Virus record (IMG/VR): IMGVR_UViG_2671180298_000002
Span: 1 to 20,689 of that record
From: a virus
Taxonomy: Duplodnaviria > Heunggongvirae > Uroviricota > Caudoviricetes
Length of the DNA: 20,689 bases
Strand: one strand, 5' to 3'
A program made the position numbers and the translations under genes. This document shows, piece by piece, positions 935 to 20,689 of this stretch. How positions within the stretch are numbered: position 1 is the first letter of the stretch; every line of letters begins with the position of its first letter. Under the pieces are notes generated by a model. It saw only the letters and a list, made by a program, of their open reading frames with translations. It made no database searches and was not told the DNA's origin.

Positions 935-2620
935 GTGAATATAAACGTCGCCGAATTGTTAAATGGGAATTACATTCTGTTATTATTTGTGGTCCTCGCG
1001 CTTGGGCTATGTCTCGGAAAGTTACGACTTGGTTCGATCCAACTGGGTAATTCCATTGGCGTTTTAGTCGTATCGCTGTTATTAGGCCAACAACATTTCA
1101 GCATTAACACCGATGCGCTTAATCTTGGCTTTATGCTGTTTATTTTCTGCGTCGGGGTCGAAGCCGGACCGAACTTTTTTTCCATTTTTTTTCGCGATGG
1201 GAAAAATTACCTAATGTTAGCACTGGTGATGGTTGGCAGTGCGCTGGTGATCGCCTTAGGGTTAGGTAAGCTGTTTGGCTGGGATATTGGCCTGACGGCC
1301 GGTATGTTAGCAGGCTCTATGACGTCGACACCGGTTCTGGTCGGTGCTGGCGATACACTGCGTCATTCCGGCATGGAAAGCAGGCAGCTCTCACTGGCAC
1401 TGGATAATCTGAGCCTCGGGTATGCCTTAACCTATTTAATCGGTCTGGTGAGTTTGATTGTTGGTGCGCGTTACTTGCCGAAATTGCAGCATCAGGACTT
1501 ACAGACCAGCGCCCAGCAAATCGCCCGCGAACGTGGCCTGGACACTGATGCCAACCGTAAGGTTTATTTACCGGTGATCCGCGCCTATCGCGTCGGCCCG
1601 GAACTGGTGGCCTGGACCGACGGCAAAAATCTGCGTGAACTGGGTATTTATCGACAAACCGGCTGCTACATTGAACGTATTCGACGTAACGGGATTCTGG
1701 CAAATCCAGACGGTGATGCCGTGCTACAAATGGGCGATGAAATAGCGTTGGTAGGCTATCCCGACGCCCATGCCCGACTCGATCCCAGCTTCCGTAACGG
1801 TAAAGAAGTTTTCGATCGTGACCTTCTCGACATGCGTATCGTCACTGAAGAAGTGGTCGTTAAAAACCATAACGCTGTAGGTAAACGTCTCGCACAACTG
1901 AAGTTGACCGATCACGGTTGCTTCCTTAACCGCGTCATTCGTAGCCAGATTGAGATGCCGATAGATGACAACGTCGTGCTTAACAAAGGTGACGTTTTAC
2001 AAGTCAGCGGCGATGCCCGCCGCGTAAAAACCATCGCCGATCGCATCGGCTTTATCTCGATTCACAGCCAGGTCACTGACCTGCTGGCATTCTGCGCCTT
2101 CTTTGTTATTGGGCTGATGATCGGGATGATCACCTTCCAGTTCAGCACATTCAGTTTCGGCATGGGGAACGCTGCCGGGTTGTTATTCGCCGGAATTATG
2201 CTGGGCTTTATGCGTGCTAACCACCCGACCTTCGGTTACATTCCGCAGGGTGCATTAAGCATGGTGAAAGAGTTCGGCTTGATGGTGTTTATGGCAGGCG
2301 TTGGTCTGAGCGCCGGTAGCGGTATTAATAACGGCCTGGGCGCGATTGGCGGTCAGATGTTGATTGCCGGATTGATTGTCAGTCTGGTGCCCGTGGTTAT
2401 CTGTTTCTTGTTCGGTGCTTATGTATTGCGAATGAACCGCGCGCTGTTGTTCGGCGCAATGATGGGCGCACGTACCTGCGCGCCGGCAATGGAGATCATC
2501 AGTGATACAGCTCGCAGTAACATCCCGGCGCTGGGCTATGCGGGCACCTATGCAATCGCCAACGTCCTGCTGACGCTGGCAGGGACAATCATCGTCATGG
2601 TATGGCCAGGATTAGGATAA
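935..2620 (+). CDS. ybjL: Putative transporter YbjL (AAE family, two membrane domains flanking cytoplasmic TrkA-C-like domains)
   Basis: 561-aa ORF with hydrophobic N- and C-terminal domains and a soluble middle; GTG start at 935; N-terminus [24 protein letters not shown] recognised as YbjL. Confidence 0.9.
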
Positions 2621-2732
2621 AACTGAAGTTGCCCTGAAAATGAAATTTTTTTGCACAACCGCAGAACTTTTCCGCAGGGCATCAGTCTTAATTAGTGCCA
2701 CTGCTTTTCTTTGATGTCCCCATTTTGTGGAG

Positions 2733-2775
2733 CCCATCAACCCCGCCATTTCGGTTCAAGGTTGATGGGTTTTTT
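2733..2775 (+). terminator. Rho-independent terminator in the host flank between ybjL and the prophage end
   Basis: Perfect 10-bp stem CCCATCAACC / GGTTGATGGG (2733..2742 and 2760..2769) with a 17-nt loop, followed by TTTTTT (2770..2775). Confidence 0.6.
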
Positions 2776-2833
2776 GTTGCCTGAAATTTATGCTGTTTAA
2801 AATCATGATGTTAGAAGCACTGTTTTTTAACGA

Positions 2834-2855
2834 TGGCGACAAAATGGCGGCAGCG
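2834..2855. repeat. Candidate att core, ogr-proximal prophage end
   Basis: TGGCGACAAAATGGCGGCAGCG; 21/22 identical to 20650..20671; lies immediately before the ogr stop codon (2856..2858). Confidence 0.6.
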
Positions 2856-3074
2856 TCAAAGAGAGAGCGCCACCTGTCCTGATTTCATTGGATGCGGCTG
2901 AACCGGATTTGACTCTTTTGGCGTTGCAATCGAACGAACAAAAGTTTCATGGGTAACAAAAGTATGGCTGCAGTTAATGTTCTGGCACTGGTTGTAACGC
3001 TCTTTGGTCAATGAAGATACCTGAAAACTGCTGCGAGTATGGGCGGCACTTCCACACAGTGGGCAAATCATCAT
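2856..3074 (-). CDS. ogr: Ogr/Delta-type zinc-finger late-gene activator
   Basis: 72-aa product MMICPLCGSAAHTRSS...ERYNQCQNINCSHTF with a CxxC...CxxxxC zinc finger, resembling P2 Ogr (MFHCPLCQHAAHARTS...). Start set at the ATG preceded by GGGGAG; the tracked ORF extends further 5'. Confidence 0.85.
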   Translation of the reverse strand: MMICPLCGSAAHTRSSFQVSSLTKERYNQCQNINCSHTFVTHETFVRSIATPKESNPVQPHPMKSGQVALSL

Positions 3075-3164
3075 TTTTCGAGTTCTCCCCATTTTTGCTA
3101 AATTCACAATAATGATACCGCATTATTCCATTTTGCAAACTTAAAAGTTCTCCATTGCGAAGAA

Positions 3165-4265
3165 TCATTCCATTTCGAAATCATCAATCCTCACTTCAAG
3201 CTCCAGACTGGTCGTAAAACCGTTATCCGGGCTGACGGTATGCGTCAGAGTCGTAATGCTCCATTCCGCATCATCTATCGGCTGTTTAAAGCCACTGACT
3301 TTCACTGGCATTTCCGTGTAGAGATCTGCCCGCCCTTCCGCCAGTTGTAGCGAGAATGACGCAACGCCGCGTTGCAGGCGTTCCCACTGCATTTTCGCTG
3401 CCCGTTCAGCGTTGCTCCGGTTGGCATAAGTGCGATTAAGTACCAGCACGTTTTCATCCGTCCCCACCAGGTAATCGCCCTGCTTCGCTTCCGGCTCTTT
3501 CTTCTGCTTCTTAGTCCTGCGCTTACGCTTCACCGTAGTGCTTTCTTTCTTCGCGGGTTCGCGGGTATGCAACCAGCTGGCAATTACCCCCGTGTAAGCT
3601 CCGCGATCTGCCAGGGTAAAGCGGTGACTGTCGCCGTCCTTACGTGTGATAGTAATCACCGGCAGTGGTTTACCGCTGGCGCTTTTGCCCTGTCCCTGCC
3701 GGATGAATAACAGATTGCCATTTTTCACCGATGCAATGGCACCGTACTGGCGCGCCAGCCGCATCAAAAAACTGCCGTCACTCTCATTAGTCTGGTCTAT
3801 ATGCTCCACGGGCTTATCCGACAGGTCTTTACCCAGTGCCATCTTCAGCTTGTGCCGCGCGGCTATTTCCTTCACCACTTCCCCGATGGTGGTGTTATGC
3901 CACGATTTTTCACGGCGGGTATTCAGCGTTTCCCGAAAATCAGCACTTCGCGCCCGGATAGTCAGGCGGTCCGGTGCGCCAGTGTGTTCAATCTCGTCCA
4001 CCGTGAATGCCCCTTTCGGGAAAAGCGGCTGCCCCTTCCAGCCCAGCGCCAGCGTAATGACCGCACCACGGCGCGGCAGCACGATTTTTCCGTCGGCGTC
4101 GTCCAGCTCCAGATCAAGTTGGTCCGCTTCAAAGCCCCGATTGTCCGTCAGCGTCAGACTCATCAGGCGGTTATCCAGCACAGTGGTGATATCCTTCCCC
4201 TCAATACTGATGCTGAATGCGGGAGTTTTGTTTCCTTTGTTAAGCAGTTCAGAGCTGAAATTCAC
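3165..4265 (-). CDS. D: Phage tail protein D (late control gene D family)
   Basis: 366-aa ORF; gene order ogr-D-U-T and size match P2 gpD; overlaps the U stop (ATGA). Confidence 0.88.
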   Translation of the reverse strand: MNFSSELLNKGNKTPAFSISIEGKDITTVLDNRLMSLTLTDNRGFEADQLDLELDDADGKIVLPRRGAVITLALGWKGQPLFPKGAFTVDEIEHTGAPDRLTIRARSADFRETLNTRREKSWHNTTIGEVVKEIAARHKLKMALGKDLSDKPVEHIDQTNESDGSFLMRLARQYGAIASVKNGNLLFIRQGQGKSASGKPLPVITITRKDGDSHRFTLADRGAYTGVIASWLHTREPAKKESTTVKRKRRTKKQKKEPEAKQGDYLVGTDENVLVLNRTYANRSNAERAAKMQWERLQRGVASFSLQLAEGRADLYTEMPVKVSGFKQPIDDAEWSITTLTHTVSPDNGFTTSLELEVRIDDFEME

Positions 4266-4747
4266 GACAGCAGCCCTCCCACCGTTTTACTGATATCGCT
4301 TAAGGCAGACGTTGCCGTGTCCTGCAGATTATTCAGTTGAGTACTGAGATCACCGAACATATCGGACAGGGATTCATCCACCCGTTTTAGCGAAAGGGTG
4401 AACTCAATCCTGCGCGGCATACCGTCGCGGAAAAACTCCGTTTTAGTCTGATTCAGTCCCTCAATCACATACATGCCGTAAATCGTGCCGCTGCCTTCAA
4501 TCAGGGGCCATGCTTTCCCCTGTTCTGCCATCTGCTCCAGTGCCAGCAACGACAGCCTGCCGCCTGTTATCTCCGGCATAAGAACACCGGAAAGCGTCAG
4601 CATGTCGTTTTCCGGTCCCAGAAACTGCGTGGACGGACGACGGTTTACCCGGCTGTTTGCCGCATGTCGCCAGCTGCGTTGATACTGCAGTTCCTGATAC
4701 GGAACGGTGCGCAGCATAAACACGTACAATCCCAGCACCATCATCAT
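4262..4747 (-). CDS. U: Phage tail protein U
   Basis: 161-aa ORF starting MMMVLGLYVFMLRTVPYQELQYQRSWRH, recognised as P2 gpU; translationally coupled to the T stop. Confidence 0.85.
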   Translation of the reverse strand: MMMVLGLYVFMLRTVPYQELQYQRSWRHAANSRVNRRPSTQFLGPENDMLTLSGVLMPEITGGRLSLLALEQMAEQGKAWPLIEGSGTIYGMYVIEGLNQTKTEFFRDGMPRRIEFTLSLKRVDESLSDMFGDLSTQLNNLQDTATSALSDISKTVGGLLS

Positions 4748-5928
4748 GCGTCGTATCCCCCCTGATCGCTGTAGTTACTCCTGGCTTTTGCCTTCAGCCT
4801 GCGTTCACGTTCATCAAGCTGGCGTGCCACCTCCCGCGCAATATCCTGCGCACTTTGTCCTGGCTGCGTCTGAATGATGATCTGCGTCGGTGCCTCAATC
4901 CGTTGAACGAGCGGCACAGTGGCTGCGCGACTCACAATTGCTTCTCCACCTTTCGCGGGAAGTGCCAAAGGGTGCAACGGTGGAAGCTCTGCTGGCGCGG
5001 CAGCAACGCCCATCATTCCGGCAACAACGGCAGCCAGTGCAGCTGTATTTCTCCGGCTGGTCACATTTGCCGGGCCGTTAACAATTTCCGGCCCGTTTTC
5101 ACCGACGATGCCAAACTGCCCACGCGGGATATAGCCGCCGCTGTCATACATCCCCGCAAAGCCATATCCCCATGACGGAAAACCACCCGATGGCATCATC
5201 ACTTTACCGTCTGCATTCACCGTCGCAGGTTGCTGACGCGTCACGCTTTCCGGCAGTTTCGCCTTTGCAGCCTCTTTACTGACAATGCCGAGTTTATCCA
5301 GCAACCAGGAAACGCCAGATTTCAGGGAGTCCAGCGGATGCATAACCATATTCAGCCCTTCCGCCAGTGCCTCCCCGAATCGTCGCCCCATTGCCGCTGC
5401 GCTCTGCAGTTCGGCAGAGGTCGACTTAACGGGCGTCAGCAGATCAGTAAACCAGCCCCAGAGCGCCTGCACTTTGTCGCCAATCCACTGAAACACAGGC
5501 TTAAGTGGTTCGAATGCTGCACTGACGGGACCTGCCGCCGCTTTGAATCCTTCCACCACGCCACCAAGAAATGCGGTGATGGGTTGCCAGTATTTCCAGA
5601 CAACCAGCGCCACGCCCGCCAGTGCAGTAACCACAAGACCTATCGGACTGAGCAGAGCACCTAACAGACCAGATACGGCATACAGGGCAACGCGCAGCAT
5701 CGCCAGTGGACCAGATGCCAGTACTCGCAGCACCGTGCCTGCGGCGACCAGTCCACCGCGCAGTACCGCCAGAGGATTCATAAACATCACAGCAACAGCA
5801 CGTAAACCGGATAATCCAGACCGCAAAAGTGCAACCGGCGCACCTGCTACAGTTTTCATGACATTTCCCGTCAGTGATGCCGTGCGGCGCAAAGATGACA
5901 ACGGTGCAGTAAGTAAACCCGCAACCAC
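4744..5928 (-). pseudogene. T: Tail tape-measure protein T, 5'-truncated C-terminal fragment
   Basis: About 394-aa Gly/Ala-rich ORF immediately upstream of U; P2 gpT is about twice this length; the open frame is closed by a stop at about 5953..5955, some 25 bp from the divergent P start. Confidence 0.6.
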
Positions 5929-5977
5929 ACAAACCGCAGGCGGGGAAAGCCTTCATTCAAGGCTGTAGGTTTGTGCC

Positions 5978-7744
5978 ATGAACACCACACTGACACCCGC
6001 AGATCTCGATCCCCGTCGGCAGGCCATGCTGCTGTACTTTCAGGGATACCGCGTAGCCCGCATTGCTGAAATGCTGGGCGAGAAAGTTGCAACCGTTCAC
6101 AGCTGGAAAAAACGCGACAAGTGGGGTGACTATGGGCCGCTGGATCAGATGCAGCTCACCACCGCCGCACGCTACTGCCAGCTCATTATGAAGGAGCACA
6201 AAGAAGGGAAAGATTTCAAAGAGATTGACCTGCTGGCGCGCCAGTCGGAGCGCCATGCGCGGATCGGCAAGTTTAACAATGGCGGCAACGAAGCCGACTT
6301 AAACCCTAACGTCGCCAACCGCAACAAAGGCCCGCGCCGTCAGCCGGAAAAGAACGTTTTCACCGATGAACAGATTGAGAAGCTGGAAGAAATCTTCCAT
6401 TCCTCCATGTTCAACTACCAGCGCCACTGGTGGGAAGCCGGAAAAACCAACCGCATCCGCAACCTGCTGAAGTCACGCCAGATCGGCGCGACCTTCTATT
6501 TTGCCCGTGAAGCCCTGATTGACGCCCTGCTAACCGGGCGTAACCAGATTTTCCTTTCCGCCAGCAAGGCTCAGGCCCACGTCTTTAAGCAGTACATCAT
6601 CGACTTCGCCAAAGAAGTGGAGGTGGAGCTGAAAGGCGATCCGATGGTGCTTCCTAACGGGGCCACGCTGTACTTCCTCGGCACCAATGCCCGCACGGCC
6701 CAGAGTTACCACGGCAACCTGTATCTGGATGAATATTTCTGGATACCGAAATTCCAGGAGCTGCGCAAAGTGGCTTCCGGTATGGCTATTCACAAAAAAT
6801 GGCGACAAACCTATTTTTCCACGCCATCCAGCCTGACACACAGTGCTTATCCGTTCTGGTCCGGTGCGCTGTTCAACCGAGGGCGCAACAAAGCCGATAA
6901 GGTGGACATCGACCTGTCCCACAGCAATCTGGCCCCCGGCCTGCTGTGCGCAGACGGGCAGTACCGCCAGATAGTCACTGTGGAAGATGCGGTGCGCGGC
7001 GGCTGTAACCTGTTCGACCTCGACCAGTTGCGCATGGAGTACAGCCCGGACGAATACCAGAACCTGCTGATGTGTGAGTTCGTGGACGATCTCGCGTCTG
7101 TGTTCCCACTCAGCGAGCTGCAGGCGTGCATGGTAGACAGTTGGGAAGTCTGGACCGACTTTCATGCACTGGCCCTGCGCCCGTTTGGCTGGCGCGAAGT
7201 GTGGATCGGATATGACCCGGCGAAAGGTACGCAGAACGGCGACAGCGCCGGATGCGTGGTGGTGGCGCCGCCAGCCGTGCCGGGCGGTAAGTTCCGCATT
7301 CTTGAGCGTCACCAGTGGCGCGGAATGGACTTTCGCGCCCAGGCTGACGCCATCAAAAAACTGACCGAACAGTACAACGTGACCTATATCGGTATCGACT
7401 CAACCGGCGTTGGTCACGGGGTTTACGAGAACGTGAAAGCGTTTTTTCCTGCCGTCCGGGAGTTTGTCTACAACCCCAACGTTAAAAACGCCCTGGTACT
7501 CAAGGCCTACGACATTATCAGCCACCGCCGTCTGGAGTTTGACGCCGGACACACCGACATAGCGCAGTCCTTTATGGCAATCCGTCGCGCCACCACCGCC
7601 AGTGGCAACCGCCCGACCTATGAAGCCAGCCGCAGCGAAGAAGCCAGCCACGCCGATCTGGCCTGGGCAACGATGCACGCACTGTTTAACGAACCGCTGC
7701 AGGGCGAATCCGCCAATACCAGCAATATTGTGGAGATTTTTTGA
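5978..7744 (+). CDS. P: Terminase large (ATPase) subunit, P2 gpP-like
   Basis: 588-aa ORF; size and position next to portal Q fit P2 gpP; 3' end overlaps the Q start. Confidence 0.9.
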   Translation: MNTTLTPADLDPRRQAMLLYFQGYRVARIAEMLGEKVATVHSWKKRDKWGDYGPLDQMQLTTAARYCQLIMKEHKEGKDFKEIDLLARQSERHARIGKFNNGGNEADLNPNVANRNKGPRRQPEKNVFTDEQIEKLEEIFHSSMFNYQRHWWEAGKTNRIRNLLKSRQIGATFYFAREALIDALLTGRNQIFLSASKAQAHVFKQYIIDFAKEVEVELKGDPMVLPNGATLYFLGTNARTAQSYHGNLYLDEYFWIPKFQELRKVASGMAIHKKWRQTYFSTPSSLTHSAYPFWSGALFNRGRNKADKVDIDLSHSNLAPGLLCADGQYRQIVTVEDAVRGGCNLFDLDQLRMEYSPDEYQNLLMCEFVDDLASVFPLSELQACMVDSWEVWTDFHALALRPFGWREVWIGYDPAKGTQNGDSAGCVVVAPPAVPGGKFRILERHQWRGMDFRAQADAIKKLTEQYNVTYIGIDSTGVGHGVYENVKAFFPAVREFVYNPNVKNALVLKAYDIISHRRLEFDAGHTDIAQSFMAIRRATTASGNRPTYEASRSEEASHADLAWATMHALFNEPLQGESANTSNIVEIF

Positions 7745-8790
7745 TGGGAAAGAGTAAGAAGAACCGCGCTGCGGCGACGAAACAGATCCAGCTTAAAAGT
7801 CAAACTACAGCCGAAGCATTCAGCTTCGGCGATCCCGTTCCTGTTCTGGACCGCCGAGAACTGCTGGATTATGTGGAATGCGTACAGATGGATCGCTGGT
7901 ATGAGCCGCCCGTCAGTTTTGACGGACTGGCACGAACCTTCCGCGCCGCTGTGCATCACAGCTCCCCCATCAGTGTTAAGCGTGACATTATCAGCAGTAC
8001 CTATATTCCGCATCGTCTTCTCAGTCAGCAGGCATTTACCCGTTTTGTGCAGGACTATCTGGTTTTTGGTAACGGCTACCTGGAGAAGCGCACGAACCGT
8101 TTCGGTGAAGTTATTTCGCTGGAGCCTGCACTGGCAAAATACACCCGGCGCGGGCTTGACCTTGAAACATACTGGTTTGTGCAATACGGTATGTCCACCC
8201 AGCCATATCAGTTCACGAAAGGCAGCATCTTTCATCTGATGGAACCGGACATCAACCAAGAAATCTACGGCCTGCCCGGTTATCTTTCTGCTATTCCATC
8301 CGCCCTGCTCAACGAGTCTGCCACGCTGTTCCGCCGCAAGTATTACATTAACGGCAGTCATGCAGGCTTCATCATGTACATGACCGACGCCGCGCAGAAC
8401 CAGGAGGATGTAAACAACCTCCGCAACGCGATGAAAAGTGCCAAAGGTCCTGGTAACTTCCGTAACCTATTTATGTACTCGCCAAACGGCAAAAAGGACG
8501 GGCTTCAGATCATCCCGTTGTCAGAAGTCGCGGCGAAGGATGAGTTTTTGAATATCAAGAACGTCAGCCGTGATGACATGATGGCGGCACACCGTGTGCC
8601 GCCACAAATGATGGGTATTATGCCGAATAATGTTGGGGGGTTTGGGGATGTAGAAAAGGCAAGCCGTGTCTTTGTCCGCAACGAGTTGATACCTCTGCAG
8701 AAACGCCTACAGGAACTTAACAACTGGTTGGGCGATGAAGTTATACGTTTCGAGCCGTACACTTTAGATATTCAGAATGAAAAGAAATAA
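7741..8790 (+). CDS. Q: Portal protein, P2 gpQ-like
   Basis: 349-aa ORF directly after the terminase; size matches P2 gpQ. Confidence 0.88.
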   Translation: MMGKSKKNRAAATKQIQLKSQTTAEAFSFGDPVPVLDRRELLDYVECVQMDRWYEPPVSFDGLARTFRAAVHHSSPISVKRDIISSTYIPHRLLSQQAFTRFVQDYLVFGNGYLEKRTNRFGEVISLEPALAKYTRRGLDLETYWFVQYGMSTQPYQFTKGSIFHLMEPDINQEIYGLPGYLSAIPSALLNESATLFRRKYYINGSHAGFIMYMTDAAQNQEDVNNLRNAMKSAKGPGNFRNLFMYSPNGKKDGLQIIPLSEVAAKDEFLNIKNVSRDDMMAAHRVPPQMMGIMPNNVGGFGDVEKASRVFVRNELIPLQKRLQELNNWLGDEVIRFEPYTLDIQNEKK

Positions 8791-8817: not shown

Positions 8818-8838
8818 AGGCCGCAAACTGAGCGGCCT
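8818..8838. terminator. Bidirectional hairpin between convergent Q and the cargo gene
   Basis: AGGCCGC-aaactga-GCGGCCT stem-loop with T-rich flanks on both strands. Confidence 0.55.
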
Positions 8839-8844
8839 TATTCA

Positions 8845-9114
8845 TTACCAATTTCTTTTTTCGGAGTTTAGCCAATCACCGCATGGATAATATCTTGACG
8901 CCCATTCACCTTGTAAACGAGCTACAAACAGAATATCGTTACTATCGACCTTGGCTTGGAGTCCGTCACGCAGTTGAGTTGCGGTCAGCGTTGTATCTAC
9001 TAACCAAAATGATTCAAGATATTTACAGTATGTAAATTGCTTTAGATAGTCAAAAACTTCATCGTAGTTTCTTCCCGGAGCCTTCAAGTCATAGGTTATA
9101 CAATAAATAGCCAT
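8845..9114 (-). CDS. Hypothetical small alpha/beta protein, possibly Cas2/VapD-like fold
   Basis: 89-aa ORF; GGAG 8 nt upstream of the ATG; starts 3 nt after the Zn-ribbon ORF stop; AT-rich; pattern MAIYCITYDL...YLESFWLV...ILFVARL resembles the Cas2 layout (recognition by eye, unverified). Confidence 0.6.
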   Translation of the reverse strand: MAIYCITYDLKAPGRNYDEVFDYLKQFTYCKYLESFWLVDTTLTATQLRDGLQAKVDSNDILFVARLQGEWASRYYPCGDWLNSEKRNW

Positions 9115-9117
9115 TCT

Positions 9118-9300
9118 CTAAGCTCCGCATTTTTTATCATTTGGGGAACATCTTAACCTGCGACATTTGCGGCAATACGATTGAGGGATCAGCCGCTCTC
9201 CTTCCATAGTTCTAAAACCAAACACTTCTTCAATTTTGTTCAAATCACCACTTGCAATAACCCCACAGCAGGGGCAGACAGCCTCAATTTGAAATGCCAT
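9118..9300 (-). CDS. Hypothetical small zinc-ribbon protein
   Basis: 60-aa product MAFQIEAVCPCCG...YCRKCRRLRC with Cys pairs; GGAG 6 nt upstream of the ATG at 9300; the tracked ORF extends to a TTG at 9363. Confidence 0.55.
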   Translation of the reverse strand: MAFQIEAVCPCCGVIASGDLNKIEEVFGFRTMEGERLIPQSYCRKCRRLRCSPNDKKCGA

Positions 9301-9463
9301 GTCTATCTCCATTCCACATGTTGAATGTAGGGTAATACTTCCTTTCAAGCAAAAATGAGACAAGGATCTTAAAACCTAATTTAAACTTGCTTGCGCGCGC
9401 TCGTATCCCCGCCACGCCTGCCCGCTTTATGTAGTGGTTTTCATGCAGATGCATGCTCTACGC

Positions 9464-9492
9464 AAAAGCCCGCCAGTTCTGGCGGGCTTTTG
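9464..9492. terminator. Hairpin separating the three-gene and two-gene cargo modules
   Basis: AAA-AGCCCGCCAG-tt-CTGGCGGGCT-TTT; GC-rich 9-10 bp stem with A/T flanks on both sides. Confidence 0.6.
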
Positions 9493-9554
9493 CAAAAACG
9501 ATCCTCAAACGATCATGCGATTTCATGCAGCATAGACATGCAAAGTAGAAACTG

Positions 9555-9971
9555 CTATTTAACGTCCGGCGTTTGCGCTGTGGGGGATACTTTTCCATCT
9601 AGCGTATTTACAATTGAGAGGGGGTAAATTCCCATTTCAATTCCACAGATCACGTCGTAACGAGCCTGCGCTTTCTCTCGCATTTCTGGAGAAACAGGGG
9701 ACGATGGTGCATTTAAAACTGCTTCGGCTTGCTTCTTCAGAGCCTTCAACCGCCTTTTCAGTTTGATTTCTTGCGGATCAACAGCATAAATCGTCCATGC
9801 AAAAGTAAAAACTTCGCTTAAAAGAATTGACACCATCGGTATTGAAGCAATGTAAAGGTCTTTCCATGTTGGATCTGTAATGAAGCTAGCCAGCTTTATT
9901 AGGAAAAGGCCTACACCGCCGCCACCTGTAACACCGACTGCTTTACCGCTTGTTTTCTTTTGTTCAGGCAT
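9555..9971 (-). CDS. Hypothetical small membrane protein (two predicted TM helices), third gene of the cargo operon
   Basis: About 138 aa from the ATG at 9971 (tracked ORF starts at a GTG at 9995); Gly-rich stretch then hydrophobic helices (GVGLFLIKLASFI; IASIPMVSILLSEVFTFAWTIYAV); overlaps the upstream gene by 8 nt. Confidence 0.6.
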   Translation of the reverse strand: MPEQKKTSGKAVGVTGGGGVGLFLIKLASFITDPTWKDLYIASIPMVSILLSEVFTFAWTIYAVDPQEIKLKRRLKALKKQAEAVLNAPSSPVSPEMREKAQARYDVICGIEMGIYPLSIVNTLDGKVSPTAQTPDVK

Positions 9972-10227
9972 GAGAGGCTGACTCCTTCCTCTCACGCTTA
10001 TTTTTCTCTGCTATATCATCGATGAGCTTTATTAACTCATCATCATTGTTTATATAAATATTTGTTTTATAGACATTTTTGTTTGCATCAGTATAAGTGA
10101 TAGAAACTTTTGTTTCGACAATAACTCGATCGAGCAGGCTACGTATAGCCACTCTAGCACCTATAAATATAGCTGGAGCTGCAACAAGCAGCCCCAACCA
10201 TCCTAACACACTAATATCTATAGACAT
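9964..10227 (-). CDS. Hypothetical single-pass membrane protein, second gene of the cargo operon
   Basis: 87 aa; N-terminal TM helix (VLGWLGLLVAAPAIFIGARVAI) then a charged soluble tail; ATG lies 2 nt after the upstream stop. Confidence 0.6.
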   Translation of the reverse strand: MSIDISVLGWLGLLVAAPAIFIGARVAIRSLLDRVIVETKVSITYTDANKNVYKTNIYINNDDELIKLIDDIAEKNKRERKESASHA

Positions 10228-10229
10228 TT

Positions 10230-11123
10230 TTAATCCGCATCAGGTTTTATTTTTCTATCTTTGGCGGCAAAGTGTCGACCCACTTTGATGATCGATAACT
10301 TTTCGTCTACCTGGCCACCGGAATCTTTCACAATTTTCTTCATCTTCACAGCAAACAATTCGCCAAAAATTTTGGGGGCGTCTGGTCCAGTAACAAGCTT
10401 GATGAACTCATTATCTTCCATTCTGACATTGCGCTTTTCACCGCCAAACTCAACACGCCAGCCACTTTTTTTGTCAGTATGCGCCGAAACGAATGTCACG
10501 GTTGTTTCAAATTCGTCAACTTCTTCTTTGGTTTCAAAGAGAACTTTTGGCGACTTAAACTCTTCTGCCTCATCTTTATGAATTTTGAGGATTTCTTTCT
10601 TAGAGGTGCGCGATTTTTTTACCACAAAATTGTCGATACCATCTTGTAACAGAGGCTGTCTGACAAACGCGTCAACAGCCTTACGAATCTCTGGGGCATT
10701 AACGATTTTTTCGACATCTTCAGAGCAAACAATCTCTTCACCATCGACTTTCAGCTTAACTTTGTCACTACCGTTAGCTTTCTCGACTATGTCGATCTTA
10801 CGCCCGTTAAGCTTCTTGAGAACCTCTAAAACTGTAGCACCGCCAACGGCTAAAGGAATGGCTGACAAACCTAAAATTTGTACAACATCTTTAGCATTAG
10901 CTAGATGTTGTACAACCTCAATATCAAACCCAAAGGAACCGGCTATCAATTCAGCGTCAACGTTAACTTCAATGTCTCGCCCTCCGTTTACAATCTCATT
11001 TGCAGAGTAGATAGCCTCACCTAGCCCCTGCAAACTTTTCGCAAACGAAAGAATATCCATCTTATGATCGTCGAGAGCTTTGCCTTGATACACAATACTT
11101 ACTGATTGAGTCTTATCCGCCAT
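10230..11123 (-). CDS. Hypothetical charged protein (about 297 aa), first gene of the cargo operon
   Basis: Long AT-rich ORF; first ATG at 11123 (tracked ORF starts at a TTG at 11144); K/E/D-rich with one internal hydrophobic stretch; no motif I recognise. Confidence 0.65.
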   Translation of the reverse strand: MADKTQSVSIVYQGKALDDHKMDILSFAKSLQGLGEAIYSANEIVNGGRDIEVNVDAELIAGSFGFDIEVVQHLANAKDVVQILGLSAIPLAVGGATVLEVLKKLNGRKIDIVEKANGSDKVKLKVDGEEIVCSEDVEKIVNAPEIRKAVDAFVRQPLLQDGIDNFVVKKSRTSKKEILKIHKDEAEEFKSPKVLFETKEEVDEFETTVTFVSAHTDKKSGWRVEFGGEKRNVRMEDNEFIKLVTGPDAPKIFGELFAVKMKKIVKDSGGQVDEKLSIIKVGRHFAAKDRKIKPDAD

Positions 11124-11259
11124 TGAGTTCAGATCCGTTGCCAATAAAATGCGCGCGATTTTACGCCCATCACTATGTTTAATCTATCTATTAATCATTT
11201 ATCCCTCTAGCTGTCTACTATCGGACTCAAAAAACATGACTCATTACAAACGAAACCTA

Positions 11260-11845: not shown

Positions 11846-14260
11846 TTAATACAGGTTCCGCCACTTATCATCTTCCTGCAAACGCTGGTTCCGATAGAAA
11901 ATACGCAGGCCTGCTCCTGACGGAATACTGCCGCCGCGAAGGAGTAAATCGACCTCTTTCTCGCTGCCATCAAATCCCCTGGACTTCAGTTCATACACGA
12001 GCTGCAGTCGCTGATGGTCTGTAATTCGCTGTTTGTAGTCTTTACGCCGTTTCGGTTTCACCAGGCGTAACCTTGCTGCCAGTTCCCGGCGCTCTTTTTT
12101 GCTCATACTGTGCAGGTAATCGTGCAACTCCTTGTCATCCATGCGGGTGATATCCGTTCTGGTATCTCCATCAGCTGATTTGTCTTTCCCTTGTTGGTAC
12201 AAATTTTCAGCAAGGGGACAGTTATTGCCACGAGTCCAAGGGGCGCAAGCGCCCTGGTCGGCTGCCGCCTCCTGAACGTCAACGGCTTTACGAACCATTT
12301 TCCACTTCACTGCATGAGTGCAGATCTTGCCCTCTGCAATGGGTGACCAGATGCCATAAATACGAATGCCGTGATCGCCATAGGCGGTCGGCTCTTCGTT
12401 GATTTCATAAGCGGTTCTGATGAGGTGATATTTACGGGGAACCAGTACGCCGCCCTGCTTCATGATGTAGGTGGCAAAACAACCAGCATCAGCAGCAGCC
12501 AGAATGGCATCAAGACGCGGGTTATCCAGTACCGGCGCACCTGCTTTTTTGTCACCCTGTTGCCTTGCCGCCTGACCAGCCAGCAAGCGAAGTTCACGGT
12601 AAGCCTGACGCCCCGGAATACCAAAGAAGCGGAATTGCTGAACACGATGCAGAGACGCCCAGGCATTCACGTATTCAGCGTTATCACGCAGAGATTTACC
12701 CGTTTCCTTGCTGATCTCGCCAGCCAGACCACGACCGTCAATGTTCTTACTGATATATTTCGCGATGTAGCTTGTCGGCGTTCCTTTGCGCGGGTTAATC
12801 AACTCAGACTTAAAGCGCGGCCCAGTGTTATTGCCCAGCTCCTCGCGGTCTTCACGGATGGCAAACTTACGCAGTAATGCAGTGATGGCACGGCGGTCTT
12901 TTTTGCGCATGAAACACAACAGGTGCCAGTGAACTGTGCCATCATGATGCGGCTCAGCCACCCGCACGCCATACCAGCGCAACCCGGCTTTGTGCATCGC
13001 CTTACGAAATGCAGCAAACATGCCGACCAGATAATCGCTGCTTTGTCTTACCGTCGCGTTTGTCCAGGTCGGGTTTGGTCTGCCGTTATTTAGCGTGGAA
13101 TGGAAACGCGACGGACAGGTGATAGTGTAGAAAACGGCGCAGTCACCGCGCATTTCCGCGATAAGCTCCAGACCTTTAACACAGGCCATCATCTCATTGC
13201 GGCGATGCGCAGGGTTGCTGCTGCTGGCGTTTACCACATCCTCCATGTCCAGCGTGTCGCCGTCTTCGTTCACCAGTTCATGAGAACGGAAAAACTCCAG
13301 CGACTTACGGCGCTGCTCACGTTTATGCATCACGGCTTCATAGCTGACATAAGGAGATGCTTTTTTGCTGACCAGGCAAACAGCGCGCAACTGCTCTTCC
13401 CGCCATTCGCAACGCATCTTCCATAATTTCCGATACCACCAGTCGGCGCACAACATACGCGCCAGCGAACCCGGAATGAGTTCATACGGCACGGGTTTAC
13501 GGCGGTTTCTTTTCCGACGGAGTTGCTCAAACGCAGGTGGGATGACATCCAGACGCAGGGTTTCCGCTGCCACCTTTTCCCATGTCTTGCGGATTTCTTC
13601 TGGCTTAACGTCATCGGTGGCATACAAATCACCACAAGCTGCATCAAGGCACATACTCATATGCGCAGCTACCAAGGTGGACAGGCGTTTCACCTGATCC
13701 TGACTCATTTCAGGCAGGATCAGCAGGCCGTCCAGCCCTTCATGGCTTGCCATAAAGCGAAAAGATGCAGATAGCTGACTGTCGCGTACATGCTCCAGTC
13801 GTTCCAGACATGGCTTAATCGTCTCACGTAAATAGCGGGAATAAGCCTTTGGCCTGCCCAGGCTGCTGAAGTATTCAATACGTTGCATCAGCGGCTTGCT
13901 GATATGGGAAGGCTGGGCGTTGACGTCCGCCAGAATGACCATGTCTGAATTAAAACGCTGCTGCTCATGCGCCAGCTTTGCCCGGCTAATGAGCTTATCC
14001 TGCTCCATTTCGCGCTGGACAGGATCACGTGATTCATTAAAGAAATAACGCTCCCAGACCTGATCACTCAGTGCCTCGCGGCGCAACTGTTCCTGCTCGT
14101 TATCGGCAGCGTACAGAGTGATCAGGTTTGAAAGCGTAGAAACCGGCGCAACTTCCGCCGGGTCCAGATAAGGGTTAATGGCCTTTTTCGGGCTGTTCCA
14201 TGAGAATGCTGCGGCAGCCTCGTTAAAGCCGCAGCAGTTGTTCATATCGGCATGACTCAT
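11846..14260 (-). CDS. A: Replication initiation protein A (rolling-circle HUH endonuclease, P2 gpA-like)
   Basis: 804-aa ORF with an HUH-type motif (VHWHLLCF) and a paired-tyrosine motif (SYIAKYISK) as in P2 gpA. Confidence 0.9.
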
Positions 14261-17260: not shown

Positions 17261-17857
17261 ATGTCAACATCAAAGTACCCAAGTGAGATCAAAATAAATC
17301 CCAATAAAGGTGGTAAGGCTGCGATTGAGCGATTAGTCGAAGCCTATGGCTTTACGACACGACAGGCTTTAGCTGATCACTTGGAAGTATCAAAAAGCAC
17401 ACTAGCGAACAGGTATTTGCGGGATACATTTCCTGCTGACTGGATAATCCAATGTGCTCTTGAAACAGGAACCTCCCTCAAATGGTTAACTACCGGACAA
17501 GGCCTTAAGCAAAGCTCGCTGACAGCAGCTACAGAAGAGCTTGTTAAGTTTCGCCTTGCCGCAGGCAAAATGATTGAAGACGGTTCATATGTCTTCGATT
17601 CATCATTTCTTCCTGCAAACCTTTCATCACCAATTGTTGTTCAGGATGGACTCGTCACATACATTTGTGATCAAAAATTTTCTGAAGTACTTGATGGAAA
17701 CTGGTTAATCAATATCGACGGAACCTATTCCATTCGAAAAATCACAAGGCTTCCTAAAGGAATGATTAAAATTACAACAGCAGAGAATAGCTTTGAATGT
17801 GCATTTTCTGATATTGAAGTGGTTGCTTGTATAAGAAGTACAATAGTCTCGAATTAA
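17261..17857 (+). CDS. cI: 186-type CI immunity repressor
   Basis: 198-aa ORF; N-terminal region (AIERLVEAYGFTTRQALADHLEVSKSTLANRYLRD...ALETGTSLKWLTTGQG) resembles the phage 186 CI N-domain; divergent from the cox-like gene. Confidence 0.82.
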   Translation: MSTSKYPSEIKINPNKGGKAAIERLVEAYGFTTRQALADHLEVSKSTLANRYLRDTFPADWIIQCALETGTSLKWLTTGQGLKQSSLTAATEELVKFRLAAGKMIEDGSYVFDSSFLPANLSSPIVVQDGLVTYICDQKFSEVLDGNWLINIDGTYSIRKITRLPKGMIKITTAENSFECAFSDIEVVACIRSTIVSN

Positions 17858-17877: not shown

Positions 17878-19554
17878 ATGAATTCATTTGCCATCGTTAT
17901 ACTCTTATTAGCATTTCTCGCCCCTGTTCTAGCTGTAATATTATTTAAACAAAGTAAAAAACACAAAGCGGCTATAGATAACCTGACAGCTAACAACATA
18001 GCCCTTTCTAACCAACTGATTGAAAATCAAGAAAAACTAGCACAGACCGTACGAGAATTATCAGAGCTTGAAGGGCGAGCAGCACCATTGTGGCAATACG
18101 AAGAATTGCACAGCGCAGTAATGGATGCAGAGAATAAGATAAAAAATGCGGACTCAATAGCCAAGCAAAAAATAGATGAAGCCCAAATTAAGGCGGCTAA
18201 AACAGTAAACGAAGCAAATTATCAAGCTCAGATGACAATAAGCAACGCTAATAGCGAAGCTATAGCAATCACCAAAGACGCTCGCGATGCACGCCTGAAA
18301 GCCAAAGAACGTCTTGATAATGCTAATAATAAAGCAAATGAGCTAATCTCAAATGCTAATGACAATGCAGTAAAAATTATTTCTGATGCAGAAGAAAGAG
18401 CAAAGGAGATTGCTGGTTCAGCATATGAAGCTAAAGAGTTTGCAGAAAAATATGAAGCAGTTGCAAAATCAATGAAAAATAAAATTGAAGGTTATGGTGA
18501 TGAATGGATCATCCCTAACCGTAGTGTACTTGATGAGCTGGCAGAAAATTATGAATTTACAGATGCAGGCAAGGAATTACAAAAAGCCAGAGAGTTAACC
18601 AAATCATTAATAAAAACTAATAAAGCTGCTTCGTGTAATTATGTTGAGCAAAACAGGCGTAATACTGCCATAAACTTTGTTTTGGATGCCTTCAATGGAA
18701 GAGTTGACAGTATTTTATCAAAAGTCAAACACAACAATTTTGGAAAACTTTCCCAAGAAATAAAAGATGCATTTCAACTAGTAAATTACAATGGCTCTGC
18801 CTTTAGGTCCGCAAAAATAAGTGACATCTATCTTCAGGCAAGACTCAACGAGCTAAAATGGGGTGTAGCAGTTAATGAAATTATGCTCGAAGAAAAAGAA
18901 GAGCAAAGAAGGATTAAAGAACAGCTTCGTGAAGAGGAAAGAGCTCGTAGAGAATATGAAAAAGCGATAAAAGAAGCTGAAAAAGAAGAAAAAGCTATTC
19001 AGCAAGCTATAAATAAAGCAACGAAAGAACTTATGCTTGCAAATGAAGAACAACGCTTAGCTTTAGAGCAAAAAATAGCTGAACTACAGTTAAAATATGA
19101 AGAAGCTGAAGCTAAAAATCAACGAGCTATTTCTATGGCTCAACAAACCAGATCAGGCCACGTCTATATCATTAGTAATATTGGTTCATTTGGCGAAGAT
19201 GTATATAAAATTGGAATGACACGCCGCCTTGAACCACTTGATCGTGTTCGTGAACTCGGAGATGCTAGTGTTCCTTTTTCGTTCGATGTTCATGCGATGA
19301 TTTATAGTGATGATGCACCATCATTAGAAAACCATCTGCATAAAGTTTTCAACGAAAAGCAGGTCAATAAAATTAACTCACGAAAAGAGTTTTTTAACGT
19401 AAATTTAAAAGAAATCAAATCAGTTATTGAAGACATGAACATCAACGCCCACTGGACAATGTTTGCAGAGGCGAAAGAATATAGAGAGTCTCTAGCTATT
19501 GAGCAGGAGCGCAAAGCAGCCACTTCCGCCAACGATGAACTACATGTTGCTTAG
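17878..19554 (+). CDS. Membrane-anchored coiled-coil protein with C-terminal T5orf172 (GIY-YIG-like) domain; DUF4041-type architecture
   Basis: 558 aa; N-terminal TM helix (FAIVILLLAFLAPVLAVILF), long coiled-coil with NAN/EA repeats, C-terminal GHVYIISN...YKIGMTRR...LENHLHKVF...KEFF motif; AAGGA 7 nt upstream; 20 bp after the cI stop. Confidence 0.85.
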   Translation: MNSFAIVILLLAFLAPVLAVILFKQSKKHKAAIDNLTANNIALSNQLIENQEKLAQTVRELSELEGRAAPLWQYEELHSAVMDAENKIKNADSIAKQKIDEAQIKAAKTVNEANYQAQMTISNANSEAIAITKDARDARLKAKERLDNANNKANELISNANDNAVKIISDAEERAKEIAGSAYEAKEFAEKYEAVAKSMKNKIEGYGDEWIIPNRSVLDELAENYEFTDAGKELQKARELTKSLIKTNKAASCNYVEQNRRNTAINFVLDAFNGRVDSILSKVKHNNFGKLSQEIKDAFQLVNYNGSAFRSAKISDIYLQARLNELKWGVAVNEIMLEEKEEQRRIKEQLREEERARREYEKAIKEAEKEEKAIQQAINKATKELMLANEEQRLALEQKIAELQLKYEEAEAKNQRAISMAQQTRSGHVYIISNIGSFGEDVYKIGMTRRLEPLDRVRELGDASVPFSFDVHAMIYSDDAPSLENHLHKVFNEKQVNKINSRKEFFNVNLKEIKSVIEDMNINAHWTMFAEAKEYRESLAIEQERKAATSANDELHVA

Positions 19555-19636: not shown

Positions 19637-20689
19637 ATGGCAGTACGAAAACTAACCACAGGGAAATGGCTTTGCGAATGTTACCCCGCCGGACGAAGTG
19701 GGCGTCGTGTGCGTAAACAATTCGCCACCAAAGGCGAAGCACTGGCTTTTGAGCGCCACACGATGGAAGAAACCGAAGCAAAGCCCTGGCTGGGTGAATC
19801 AGTGGATCGTCGAACACTGAAAGACGTGGTTGAGCTATGGTTCAAACTACATGGTAAATCTCTGACAGCTGGGCAGCATGTCTATGACAAATTGCTGTTG
19901 ATGGTTGACGCTCTGGGCAATCCTCTTGCAACCGATCTCACCTCTAAAATGTTTGCCCACTATCGAGATAAACGCCTGACAGGCGAGATCTACTTCAGCG
20001 AGAAATGGAAGAAAGGAGCAAGCCCGGTCACCATTAACCTGGAGCAAAGCTATCTAAGTAGTGTTTTTAGCGAACTATCCCGTCTGGGCGAATGGTCGTA
20101 TCCGAACCCACTGGAGAACATGCGAAAATTCACCATCGCAGAAAAAGAGATGGCATGGCTTACCCATGAGCAGATTGTTGAATTGCTGGCTGATTGCAAA
20201 CGTCAGGACCCAATTCTGGCACTGGTAGTTAAGATATGCTTAAGCACAGGCGCACGCTGGCGTGAAGCCGTAAATCTTACCCGCTCACAGGTGACCAAAT
20301 ACCGAATTACCTTTGTCAGAACGAAGGGGAAGAAAAACAGAAGCATCCCTATCAGTAAAGAGCTTTACGAAGAGATCATGGCGCTTGATGGGTTCAATTT
20401 CTTCACAGACTGCTATTTTCAATTTTTATCCGTGATGGAAAAAACGTCTATCGTGCTCCCTCGCGGTCAACTCACACACGTTCTGCGCCATACGTTTGCG
20501 GCGCACTTCATGATGTCGGGTGGAAACATTCTGGCCTTACAAAAAATTCTCGGACACCACGATATAAAAATGACTATGCGTTACGCACATCTGGCACCGG
20601 ATCATCTAGAAACGGCGCTCCGTTTCAATCCTCTGGCAACGCTGCCAAGTGGCGACAAAGTGGCGGCAGCGGTTGGCATTACCCCGTAA
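19637..20689 (+). CDS. int: Tyrosine integrase (P2 Int-like)
   Basis: 350-aa ORF; N-terminus MAVRKLTTGKW...GRRVRKQF parallels P2 Int (MAIKKLDDGRY...GKRIRRKF); C-terminal LSTGARWREA...HVLRHTFA...MRYAHLAP recombinase motifs with the catalytic Tyr. Confidence 0.92.
   Translation: MAVRKLTTGKWLCECYPAGRSGRRVRKQFATKGEALAFERHTMEETEAKPWLGESVDRRTLKDVVELWFKLHGKSLTAGQHVYDKLLLMVDALGNPLATDLTSKMFAHYRDKRLTGEIYFSEKWKKGASPVTINLEQSYLSSVFSELSRLGEWSYPNPLENMRKFTIAEKEMAWLTHEQIVELLADCKRQDPILALVVKICLSTGARWREAVNLTRSQVTKYRITFVRTKGKKNRSIPISKELYEEIMALDGFNFFTDCYFQFLSVMEKTSIVLPRGQLTHVLRHTFAAHFMMSGGNILALQKILGHHDIKMTMRYAHLAPDHLETALRFNPLATLPSGDKVAAAVGITP
20650..20671. repeat. Candidate att core, int-proximal prophage end (inside the int 3' end)
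   Basis: TGGCGACAAAGTGGCGGCAGCG; 21/22 identical to 2834..2855. Confidence 0.6.

Follow-up and report, generated by a model that had tools for sequence, protein, structure and literature searches.

Cas2 is universal in CRISPR systems, and its own catalytic activity is without an agreed role; the protein is thought to derive from a VapD-like toxin of mobile elements. A protein of the Cas2/VapD superfamily found outside CRISPR on a mobile element belongs to a kind that is known in outline. Some mobile elements have been reported to carry a Cas2 homologue but no antitoxin (Makarova et al. 2012, PMC3506569), and the closest described systems are BPSL1038 of Burkholderia pseudomallei, a characterised stand-alone Cas2-like endonuclease, VapD of the VapXD modules and the type V antitoxin GhoS. 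The subject here is a two-gene cassette in a stretch of 20,689 nucleotides (the whole of which is called the window; IMG/VR virus record IMGVR_UViG_2671180298_000002, positions 1 to 20,689), which is a defective P2-like (Peduoviridae) prophage of Escherichia coli. The cassette encodes a Cas2-like protein of 89 residues and, directly upstream of it, a small zinc-ribbon (Zn-ribbon) protein. The features of the cassette and its immediate flanks are as follows.

9114..8845, minus strand: gene for the Cas2-like protein, 89 residues, phrog_1090, with an ATG start and a TAA stop
9300..9118, minus strand: gene for the Zn-ribbon protein, 60 residues, basic and Cys-rich, phrog_19700, with an ATG start, a CPCCG knuckle and a CRKC knuckle
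9301..9399, minus strand: 5' region of the cassette, with the conserved blocks TGTCTCATTTT and TTACCCTACA and a GGAG ribosome-binding site, from an alignment of seven P2-like loci
9400..9418, unstranded: cos, the counterpart of the 19-nucleotide P2 cohesive end, from alignment to the P2 cosL/cosR junction and invariant in seven P2-like loci
8818..8838, unstranded: GC-rich hairpin of 7 bp between the convergent genes for portal Q (stop at 8790) and the Cas2-like protein (stop at 8845), from a scan for terminator-like structures
9462..9493, unstranded: perfect 15-bp hairpin (arms of 15 nucleotides) on the far side of cos, conserved in the aligned P2-like loci

The 89-residue protein matches phrog_1090, which is listed under "unknown function", with an expectation value (E) of 4e-30. 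Scans of this protein against Pfam and NCBIfam gave no match, meaning that it falls below the curated Cas2 thresholds (the gathering score of Pfam PF09827 is 23.8 bits), and PADLOC returned weak but full-length matches to Cas2b (E = 8e-4, 17.3 bits) and Cas2 (E = 4e-3, 15.8 bits). Because direct sequence and profile searches against PDB chains gave nothing significant (best Cas2 chain, E = 1.4), the link to Cas2 had to be made through hidden Markov model (HMM) libraries, relatives and structure. Among diverse relatives, PF09827 (CRISPR_Cas2) is matched by 19 of 47 at E <= 0.01, the best at 6e-8, the PADLOC Cas2b model by 35 of 46, and TIGR01573 by three of 46; all eleven PADLOC families that are matched by any relative are Cas2 variants.

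An AlphaFold2 model of the 89-residue protein, built with 11 homologues, has a mean predicted local distance difference test score (pLDDT) of 90.5 and the topology b1-a1-b2-b3-a2-b4 followed by a short C-terminal helix, with strands at residues 2-9, 28-33, 36-41 and 61-67 and helices at 18-25 and 45-53. This is the ferredoxin-like fold that characterises Cas2. In a Foldseek search of the PDB, the matches ranked 1 to 16 are all Cas2 proteins (E 1.5e-3 to 1.8e-2, probability 1.0), with query-normalised template-modelling (TM) scores of 0.54-0.65 and 13-23% identity, and GhoS (rank 20), BPSL1038 (rank 21) and VapD (rank 37) follow lower down. A sequence-only reading of the window had likened the protein to Cas2 by eye, and this resemblance is borne out by the predicted b-a-b-b-a-b fold, by the 16 top-ranking PDB matches and by the family-level Cas2 HMM matches.

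Conservation within the family points to the same relationship. The residues Y8, D9, L10, P13, Y17, S35, W37, D57, D60, V64 and W81 are conserved, and the Cas2 hallmark positions are kept family-wide, namely the YD that ends strand 1, an S-x-W/aromatic motif in strand 3 and an Asp before strand 4. D9, which lies in T-Y-D-L where strand 1 ends, does not vary among close relatives, and its conservation across 46 diverse members is at least 90%; the Asp of "YDL" that the same reading had singled out is thus nearly invariant across the family. Taken together, these results show the 89-residue protein to be a stand-alone member of the Cas2/VapD superfamily, in a large family of its own that stands apart from CRISPR Cas2.

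The protein is not a CRISPR Cas2, because there is no array, no cas1 and no match to the Cas2 of the host. The 20.7-kb window contains no array-like repeats, and no cas1 was found in it, the scanned open reading frames (ORFs) being assigned to prophage, host or defence functions. The expectation that the gene stands alone, with neither a CRISPR array nor another cas gene in the window, therefore holds. The phrog_1090 family profile has no similarity to the type I-E Cas2 of the host (hhalign probability 0.15%), and no cas1 cluster is present among the neighbours of 96 related loci or in the Pfam-annotated neighbourhoods examined.

The family itself is extensive. An exhaustive profile search recovered 4,188 cluster representatives (50% identity) at E <= 1e-3 and 1,266 at E <= 1e-10, nearly all of them 85-95 residues long. 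A scan by sequence pattern, in which each species was represented by a single genome, gave 182 relatives, which come from Proteobacteria, Actinobacteria, Firmicutes, Bacteroidota, Chloroflexota, cyanobacteria, Verrucomicrobia and two haloarchaea. Some database records already name family members "CRISPR-associated endonuclease Cas2", and such an ORF has been remarked in a Sinorhizobium prophage (PMC12429752). No functional study of the phrog_1090 family was found in the literature, nor any paper on the accession of the E. coli protein.

Genomic context was compared across 96 loci with a crude ORF caller, and no neighbour or operon partner is conserved among them. The largest neighbour cluster (seven of 96 loci) consists of candidate generic helix-turn-helix (HTH) regulators, judged by protein size, and the next (five of 96) of proteins of 414-461 residues, putatively terminase large subunits on the basis of one N-terminal sequence. 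In the commonest layout, found in 26 of the loci, the Cas2-like gene points away from its upstream neighbour and toward its downstream one, and only about 15 loci have a same-strand gene close upstream. Nearly always, the family is carried solo, with a presumed promoter of its own, on prophages, small plasmids and defence islands. A Cytobacillus prophage has its family gene on the strand opposite to all neighbours; Enterococcus phage phiFL1A has it at the genetic switch, where it shares the strand of the repressor and integrase and runs opposite to the lytic genes; and the copy of Staphylococcus phage SN8 is found in the early region, again on the repressor strand and opposite the lytic genes, near TIR and DUF4231 genes. 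In unrelated prophages, family genes appear to adjoin terminase or portal genes.

On plasmids and chromosomes, defence genes are close to some of the copies. In ColE1-type plasmids of 4.8 kb from Klebsiella and Enterobacter, the family gene adjoins an AbiL-like ATPase, and in chromosomal islands it is found beside Thoeris and, elsewhere, beside an nSTAND NTPase and HicAB; another chromosomal-island copy is near a protein with a merely faint SocA_Panacea match. The plasmid copies are exemplified by Enterobacter plasmid pE80014967-2 (4863 bp), which, together with about 30 similar plasmids of Klebsiella, Enterobacter and Citrobacter, carries a solo family member with 38% identity, opposite the AbiL-like ATPase (PADLOC AbiLi, 4e-72) and its 122-residue partner.

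In the P2-like loci, by contrast with this solo distribution, the Cas2-like gene is always paired. The Zn-ribbon and Cas2-like ORFs are separated by 3 nucleotides in the window and by 2-3 nucleotides in all ten of ten related P2-like loci, each of which has both genes. A GGAG Shine-Dalgarno-like motif precedes the Zn-ribbon ATG by 6 nucleotides and the Cas2-like ATG by 8, so the earlier description of two ORFs 3 nucleotides apart, each with its own Shine-Dalgarno sequence, is correct for the minus strand. The span given there for the module, 8845-9363, takes in both ORFs; its 9363 end is only the upstream TTG of a mechanically called ORF, and the real ATG is at 9300, because the homologues have 60 residues and the GGAG-N6-ATG arrangement is conserved. 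Given the 3-nucleotide gap, the Zn-ribbon gene appears to be translationally coupled to the downstream Cas2-like gene. An Rfam scan detected no RNA family in or near the cassette, and so gives no hint that an RNA antitoxin of any known family is present.

Pairwise ratios of nonsynonymous to synonymous divergence (dN/dS) among the ten P2-like loci are 0.005-0.13 (Zn-ribbon gene) and 0.04-0.21 (Cas2-like gene), at dS values that are often >1. These low values in both ORFs indicate genuine protein-coding genes under strong purifying selection. Between the window and one of the related loci (L019), the Zn-ribbon protein is 98% identical despite a synonymous divergence of about 1.3 (dN 0.007). This constraint is unusually strong for an accessory protein of 60 residues, and exceeds that on the Cas2-like partner.

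The invariant residues of the Zn-ribbon protein include P10, C11, C12, F27, G28, F29, R30, Q40, S41, Y42, C43, R44, C46, R47 and C51. Its model (pLDDT 83.5) has a small, beta-rich, zinc-ribbon-like fold, and a fold search with it gave nothing at E < 1, the matches being limited to ribosomal proteins with a generic zinc ribbon and to the Zn region of Hpy99I. Since no specific structural relative was found, the assignment stops at "Zn-ribbon". Pfam and NCBIfam scans of the protein also gave no match. A relationship to Ogr/Delta was considered and rejected, because the protein has no Pfam match and the true Ogr of the same prophage (2856..3107) is matched at 6.7e-22. As a protein in its own right, the Zn-ribbon has homologues that were found solely in P2-like phages of enterobacteria, in every case encoded upstream of the Cas2-like gene, and this distribution shows it to be a phage-lineage-specific partner of the Cas2-like protein.

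The same Zn-ribbon domain also forms the C-terminus of a 197-residue DnaD_N/winged-helix protein in Shigella Stx phages. In Shigella phage 75/02 Stx, the gene for this protein (2096..2689 of the extracted locus, L129) lies between antiterminator Q and stxA, and its product shares an FGFR...PQS[YW]CR.CR motif with the 60-residue protein of the window. The presence of the domain in a winged helix-turn-helix protein of Stx phages suggests that it serves to bind nucleic acids or to dock proteins and is not a dedicated antitoxin.

The position of the pair was settled by cos. Because the P2 cohesive end aligns to 9400..9418, the cassette occupies the stretch from cos to the Q stop codon, and it is transcribed from the cos side toward Q. 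In P2, the portal-to-cos interval is about 167 nucleotides and only the tQ terminator lies inside it; the hairpin at 8818..8838 matches tQ in position and is likely to be a bidirectional terminator. The sequence-only reading had placed the pair between two hairpins, at 8818..8838 and 9464..9492, and regarded it for that reason as an independent transcription unit. Both hairpins exist, the second extending over 9462..9493, but they are not the boundaries of the module, as cos intervenes. The second hairpin is a terminator of the neighbouring cassette and/or a cos-recognition element, and is outside the Zn-ribbon/Cas2-like module. It is flanked by motifs of the TGCATG/ATGCA type (window 9420..9560) that are conserved in all seven aligned P2-like loci and that include a perfect direct repeat, TTTCATGCAG, beside cos at 9439..9448 and 9521..9530. 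The motifs at 9420..9560 are candidate terminase recognition elements.

Independence of the pair is instead supported by its neighbours. In the window, a three-gene cassette matching PDC-S42 lies on the other side of cos; in Klebsiella phage ST512-KPC3phi13.6, PADLOC Hp1-Hp2-Hp3 genes are found across cos from the pair in place of PDC-S42; and in one IMG/VR locus (L014) there are only about 900 nucleotides from gpA to the Zn-ribbon gene, which leaves no space for a PDC-S42-like cassette. The pair is missing from both P2 and Fels-2. With three differing neighbour contexts (PDC-S42, Hp1-3 and none) and this absence, the pair is an independent cargo unit.

In Salmonella phage Fels-2, the portal-to-cos slot holds, in the same orientation, a gene for a 565-residue protein matching AbiU (PADLOC E = 2.7e-112). 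This AbiU homologue (2140..3837 of locus L134, equivalent to NC_010463 22639..24336) is annotated merely as hypothetical. Cargo can thus occupy the P2 hotspot on either side of cos. The interval between gpA and gpQ is a published P2 defence hotspot (PMC9122126; PMC13586616), and the pair lies within it, beside cos, and varies among related phages. This exact locus is listed in Table S5 of PMC9122126 (Rousset et al. 2022), with every gene given as "hypothetical", and the table of tested systems in that paper contains no accession from it. These observations show the pair to be an accessory ("moron") cassette that fills the cargo slot from portal to cos in a P2-like prophage. The cassette region is carried by eight of 5,426 complete E. 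coli genomes at 99.3-100% identity, and is chromosomal in every case.

The remaining features of the prophage and the adjoining host DNA are listed below, with the strand where it was recorded.

935..2620: host ybjL
2700..2778: RybB small RNA (105 bits)
2856..3107: ogr, a true Ogr (Pfam, 6.7e-22)
3165..4265: gpD
4262..4747: gpU
4744..5928: tape-measure protein, C-terminal part of about 390 residues alone (phrog_5690 positions 519-907 of 907)
5978..7744, plus strand: terminase P
7741..8790, plus strand: portal Q, with its stop at 8790
9555..11144, minus strand: PDC-S42 three-gene cassette (proteins of 304, 87 and 146 residues), on the other side of cos
11846..14260, minus strand: replication protein A (gpA), followed by Dam, Cox, CI and integrase
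17261..17857: CI repressor
19637..20689: integrase

The truncated tape-measure gene directly abuts terminase P. The window is without the genes O (capsid scaffold), N (capsid), M (small terminase) and L (head completion), which the relative CP130447 has to the left of P; the lysis genes and the remaining tail genes, expected from P2 gene order between these and the tape-measure gene, would likewise be missing. The prophage is regarded as defective because of the absence of head genes and the tape-measure remnant in 935..5977. Two further cargo regions are present. The 304-residue protein of the three-gene cassette matches the PADLOC candidate PDC-S42 (7.8e-44) and also the NCBIfam model "LAPAL motif-containing putative phage structural protein" (2e-56), so that its labels conflict. 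Between the CI repressor and the integrase, a 558-residue DUF4041/T5orf172 protein is encoded at 17878..19554 on the plus strand; its PADLOC match is to PD-Lambda-1, a defence system (E = 1.7e-120), which makes this interval a second defence cargo site of the prophage.

As to function, we tentatively favour a reading in which the cassette supplies a lysogen-expressed, homodimeric nuclease of the Cas2/VapD type that is used against competing mobile elements and is modulated by the Zn-ribbon protein. The Cas2-like protein would act as a homodimer, and the nearly invariant Asp9 that ends strand 1 would join Ser35, Asp57 and Asp60 in an active or metal-binding site. The cassette would be driven in the lysogen by its own promoter, presumed to be in 9301..9399 and to overlap the left arm of cos, and translational coupling would set a fixed proportion of the Zn-ribbon protein, which may bind either the nuclease or its nucleic-acid substrate and tune or restrain the activity. 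The prophage or its host would be helped against other mobile elements through superinfection exclusion or an abortive-infection type of defence. We infer support for this nuclease from the fold and homology, the cargo slot, the independence of the pair, the lysogen-type orientation, the defence neighbours elsewhere and the purifying selection, and the genomic context makes plausible the earlier suggestion of a "mini defence pair".

Several points weigh against it. A promoter scan found no strong sigma-70 consensus upstream of the Zn-ribbon gene, and with no convincing promoter of this kind there, expression in the lysogen is deduced from orientation alone. Co-location with defence genes would fit anti-defence genes as well. 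According to the literature, adaptation by true Cas2 does not require the conserved Asp, and the conservation of Asp9 is for this reason no proof of catalysis. Nor was any activity, toxicity or protection found reported in the literature for any family member.

The sequence-only reading had also proposed a toxin-antitoxin pair, which in its most specific form would be a type II or addiction module, with a Cas2/VapD-like RNase as toxin and the Zn-ribbon protein as antitoxin, as VapX is for VapD. The small upstream gene that lies 2-3 nucleotides from the Cas2-like gene in all enterobacterial P2-like loci, the co-divergence of the pair, the presence of VapD among the structural matches and the complementary charges of the two proteins (a basic Zn-ribbon and an acidic Cas2-like protein, counted from the sequences) speak for such a module. 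The upstream partner, however, is a feature of the P2-like clade alone, where the only Zn-ribbon homologues are found, and the family elsewhere is overwhelmingly solo; no neighbour is conserved across the 96 loci, about 85 of which lack a closely coupled gene upstream, many family genes have neighbours on the other strand, no candidate antitoxin adjoins the solo copies of phage lysogeny modules or of the 4.8-kb ColE1 plasmids, and VapD ranks structurally far below Cas2 (E ~0.08). The proposal is weakened accordingly, and we consider an addiction module unlikely. The solo copies, and the Zn-ribbon domain that occurs without a Cas2-like gene in the DnaD_N/winged-helix protein of Stx phages, would agree with two genes that are functionally unrelated cargo on one transcript, the Zn-ribbon protein being, for example, a small DNA-binding regulator. 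Against this stands the constancy of the pairing, as the two occur together with a 2-3-nucleotide gap in every P2-like locus recovered, neither is found alone in that clade, and the arrangement holds down to 71% identity of the Cas2-like protein and at dS >1; unrelated cargo is thus rather improbable.

Two further explanations take the Cas2 fold as a starting point and dispense with a defensive nuclease. A phage look-alike of Cas2 could sequester the Cas1-Cas2 integrase of the host, or poison it, and thereby keep the lysogen from gaining anti-prophage spacers. Such an anti-CRISPR would suit a Cas2 fold carried by temperate phages and plasmids, and the hosts of family-bearing phages and plasmids include ones with known CRISPR-Cas systems. 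Blocking adaptation via Cas2 is also a known strategy (AcrVA5, PMC11021501). The anti-CRISPR reading fits poorly with a family profile so unlike the host type I-E Cas2, with the same motifs recurring in hosts that have very different CRISPR types or none and the same generic Cas2 models being matched throughout, with conserved residues that sit at catalytic-type positions rather than on a variable Cas1-binding surface, and with copies that lie within chromosomal defence islands; we regard it as very unlikely. A GhoS-like, sequence-specific regulatory RNase or RNA-binding protein, adjusting phage or host transcripts in, for instance, lysogeny maintenance, would agree with GhoS as a structural match and with the Firmicutes-phage copies on the repressor strand at or beside the genetic switch. 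It is nonetheless a doubtful fit for an optional accessory gene with so few E. coli carriers, for a family that occupies unrelated positions across phages (near terminase/portal genes or in early regions) and plasmids, and for a locus with no GhoT-like partner, and we give it little credence. It is also conceivable, though we would not expect it, that phrog_1090 represents an unrecognised and very widespread single-gene effector of mobile elements that shares its ancestry with Cas2, either a minimal stand-alone nuclease against competing phages or plasmids or a universal, prophage-made inhibitor of CRISPR adaptation, to which a Zn-ribbon sensor or switch was added in the enterobacterial P2 lineage. 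If true, such an effector would show a role for free-living Cas2 relatives outside CRISPR, and would bear on the origin of the adaptation module.

Whichever of these functions applies, the analysis marks out free-standing relatives of Cas2 as one family that is large, coherent and strongly conserved. The P2 version is tractable, as it is a 0.5-kb two-gene E. coli cassette in a locus whose neighbouring cargo has repeatedly proved to be anti-phage, and one function found for it could extend to the whole family. If the cassette proves inert, or is a plain toxin-antitoxin pair, the finding is an ordinary one. No earlier description of the Zn-ribbon pairing or of the portal-to-cos slot was found in the literature.

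Among the known systems, GhoS, a type V antitoxin RNase of E. coli, resembles the 89-residue protein in its Cas2-like fold and small size, and no sequence similarity was detected between them. In contrast to GhoST, the cassette has no gene for a ghoT-like membrane toxin; a terminator hairpin and the convergent portal gene follow the Cas2-like gene, with no small ORF between. With VapD of VapXD (from H. influenzae and H. pylori), the likeness is that of a Cas2-superfamily RNase with a small partner gene upstream, borne on mobile elements. The structural match is weaker than that to Cas2 (E ~0.08-0.1), and the partner in the window is a lineage-restricted Zn-ribbon protein that is unrelated to VapX. 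In VapXD, the toxin is always accompanied by its cognate upstream antitoxin, whereas the Zn-ribbon protein is confined to enterobacterial P2-like loci. With P2 old/tin, the Fels-2 AbiU gene and other gpA-gpQ cargo, the cassette has the hypervariable cos-proximal locus in common, and the proteins are unrelated.

CRISPR Cas2 (PF09827, TIGR01573) is similar at more levels, as it shares the ferredoxin-like b-a-b-b-a-b fold in about 90 residues, the Asp that ends strand 1, the S-x-(W/F) of strand 3, the Asp before strand 4 and a family-level sequence homology. The phrog_1090 family differs from it in having motifs of its own (PG[RQ][ND]Y, ES-x-W, D-x-ND, WA and WL) and an extra C-terminal helix, and in being found solo on mobile elements with no cas1, array or other cas gene nearby. 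BPSL1038 (PDB 7VXR; PMC10491678), a double-stranded DNA endonuclease that is independent of CRISPR, is the characterised stand-alone counterpart, with a structural match of TM 0.66, an Asp ending strand 1 and a Ser/Trp-containing motif in strand 3. However, 7VXR is unmatched by either family profile at E <= 10, the Foldseek alignment is only 7% identical, and the BPSL1038 signature D11(X20)SST (PMC10491678) is missing from the family, which instead has D9(X25)S35 in E-S-[FV]-W. BPSL1038 is reported from only seven genera and the phrog_1090 family spans many phyla; judged by these sequence comparisons, the phrog_1090 family is distinct from BPSL1038 and far larger.

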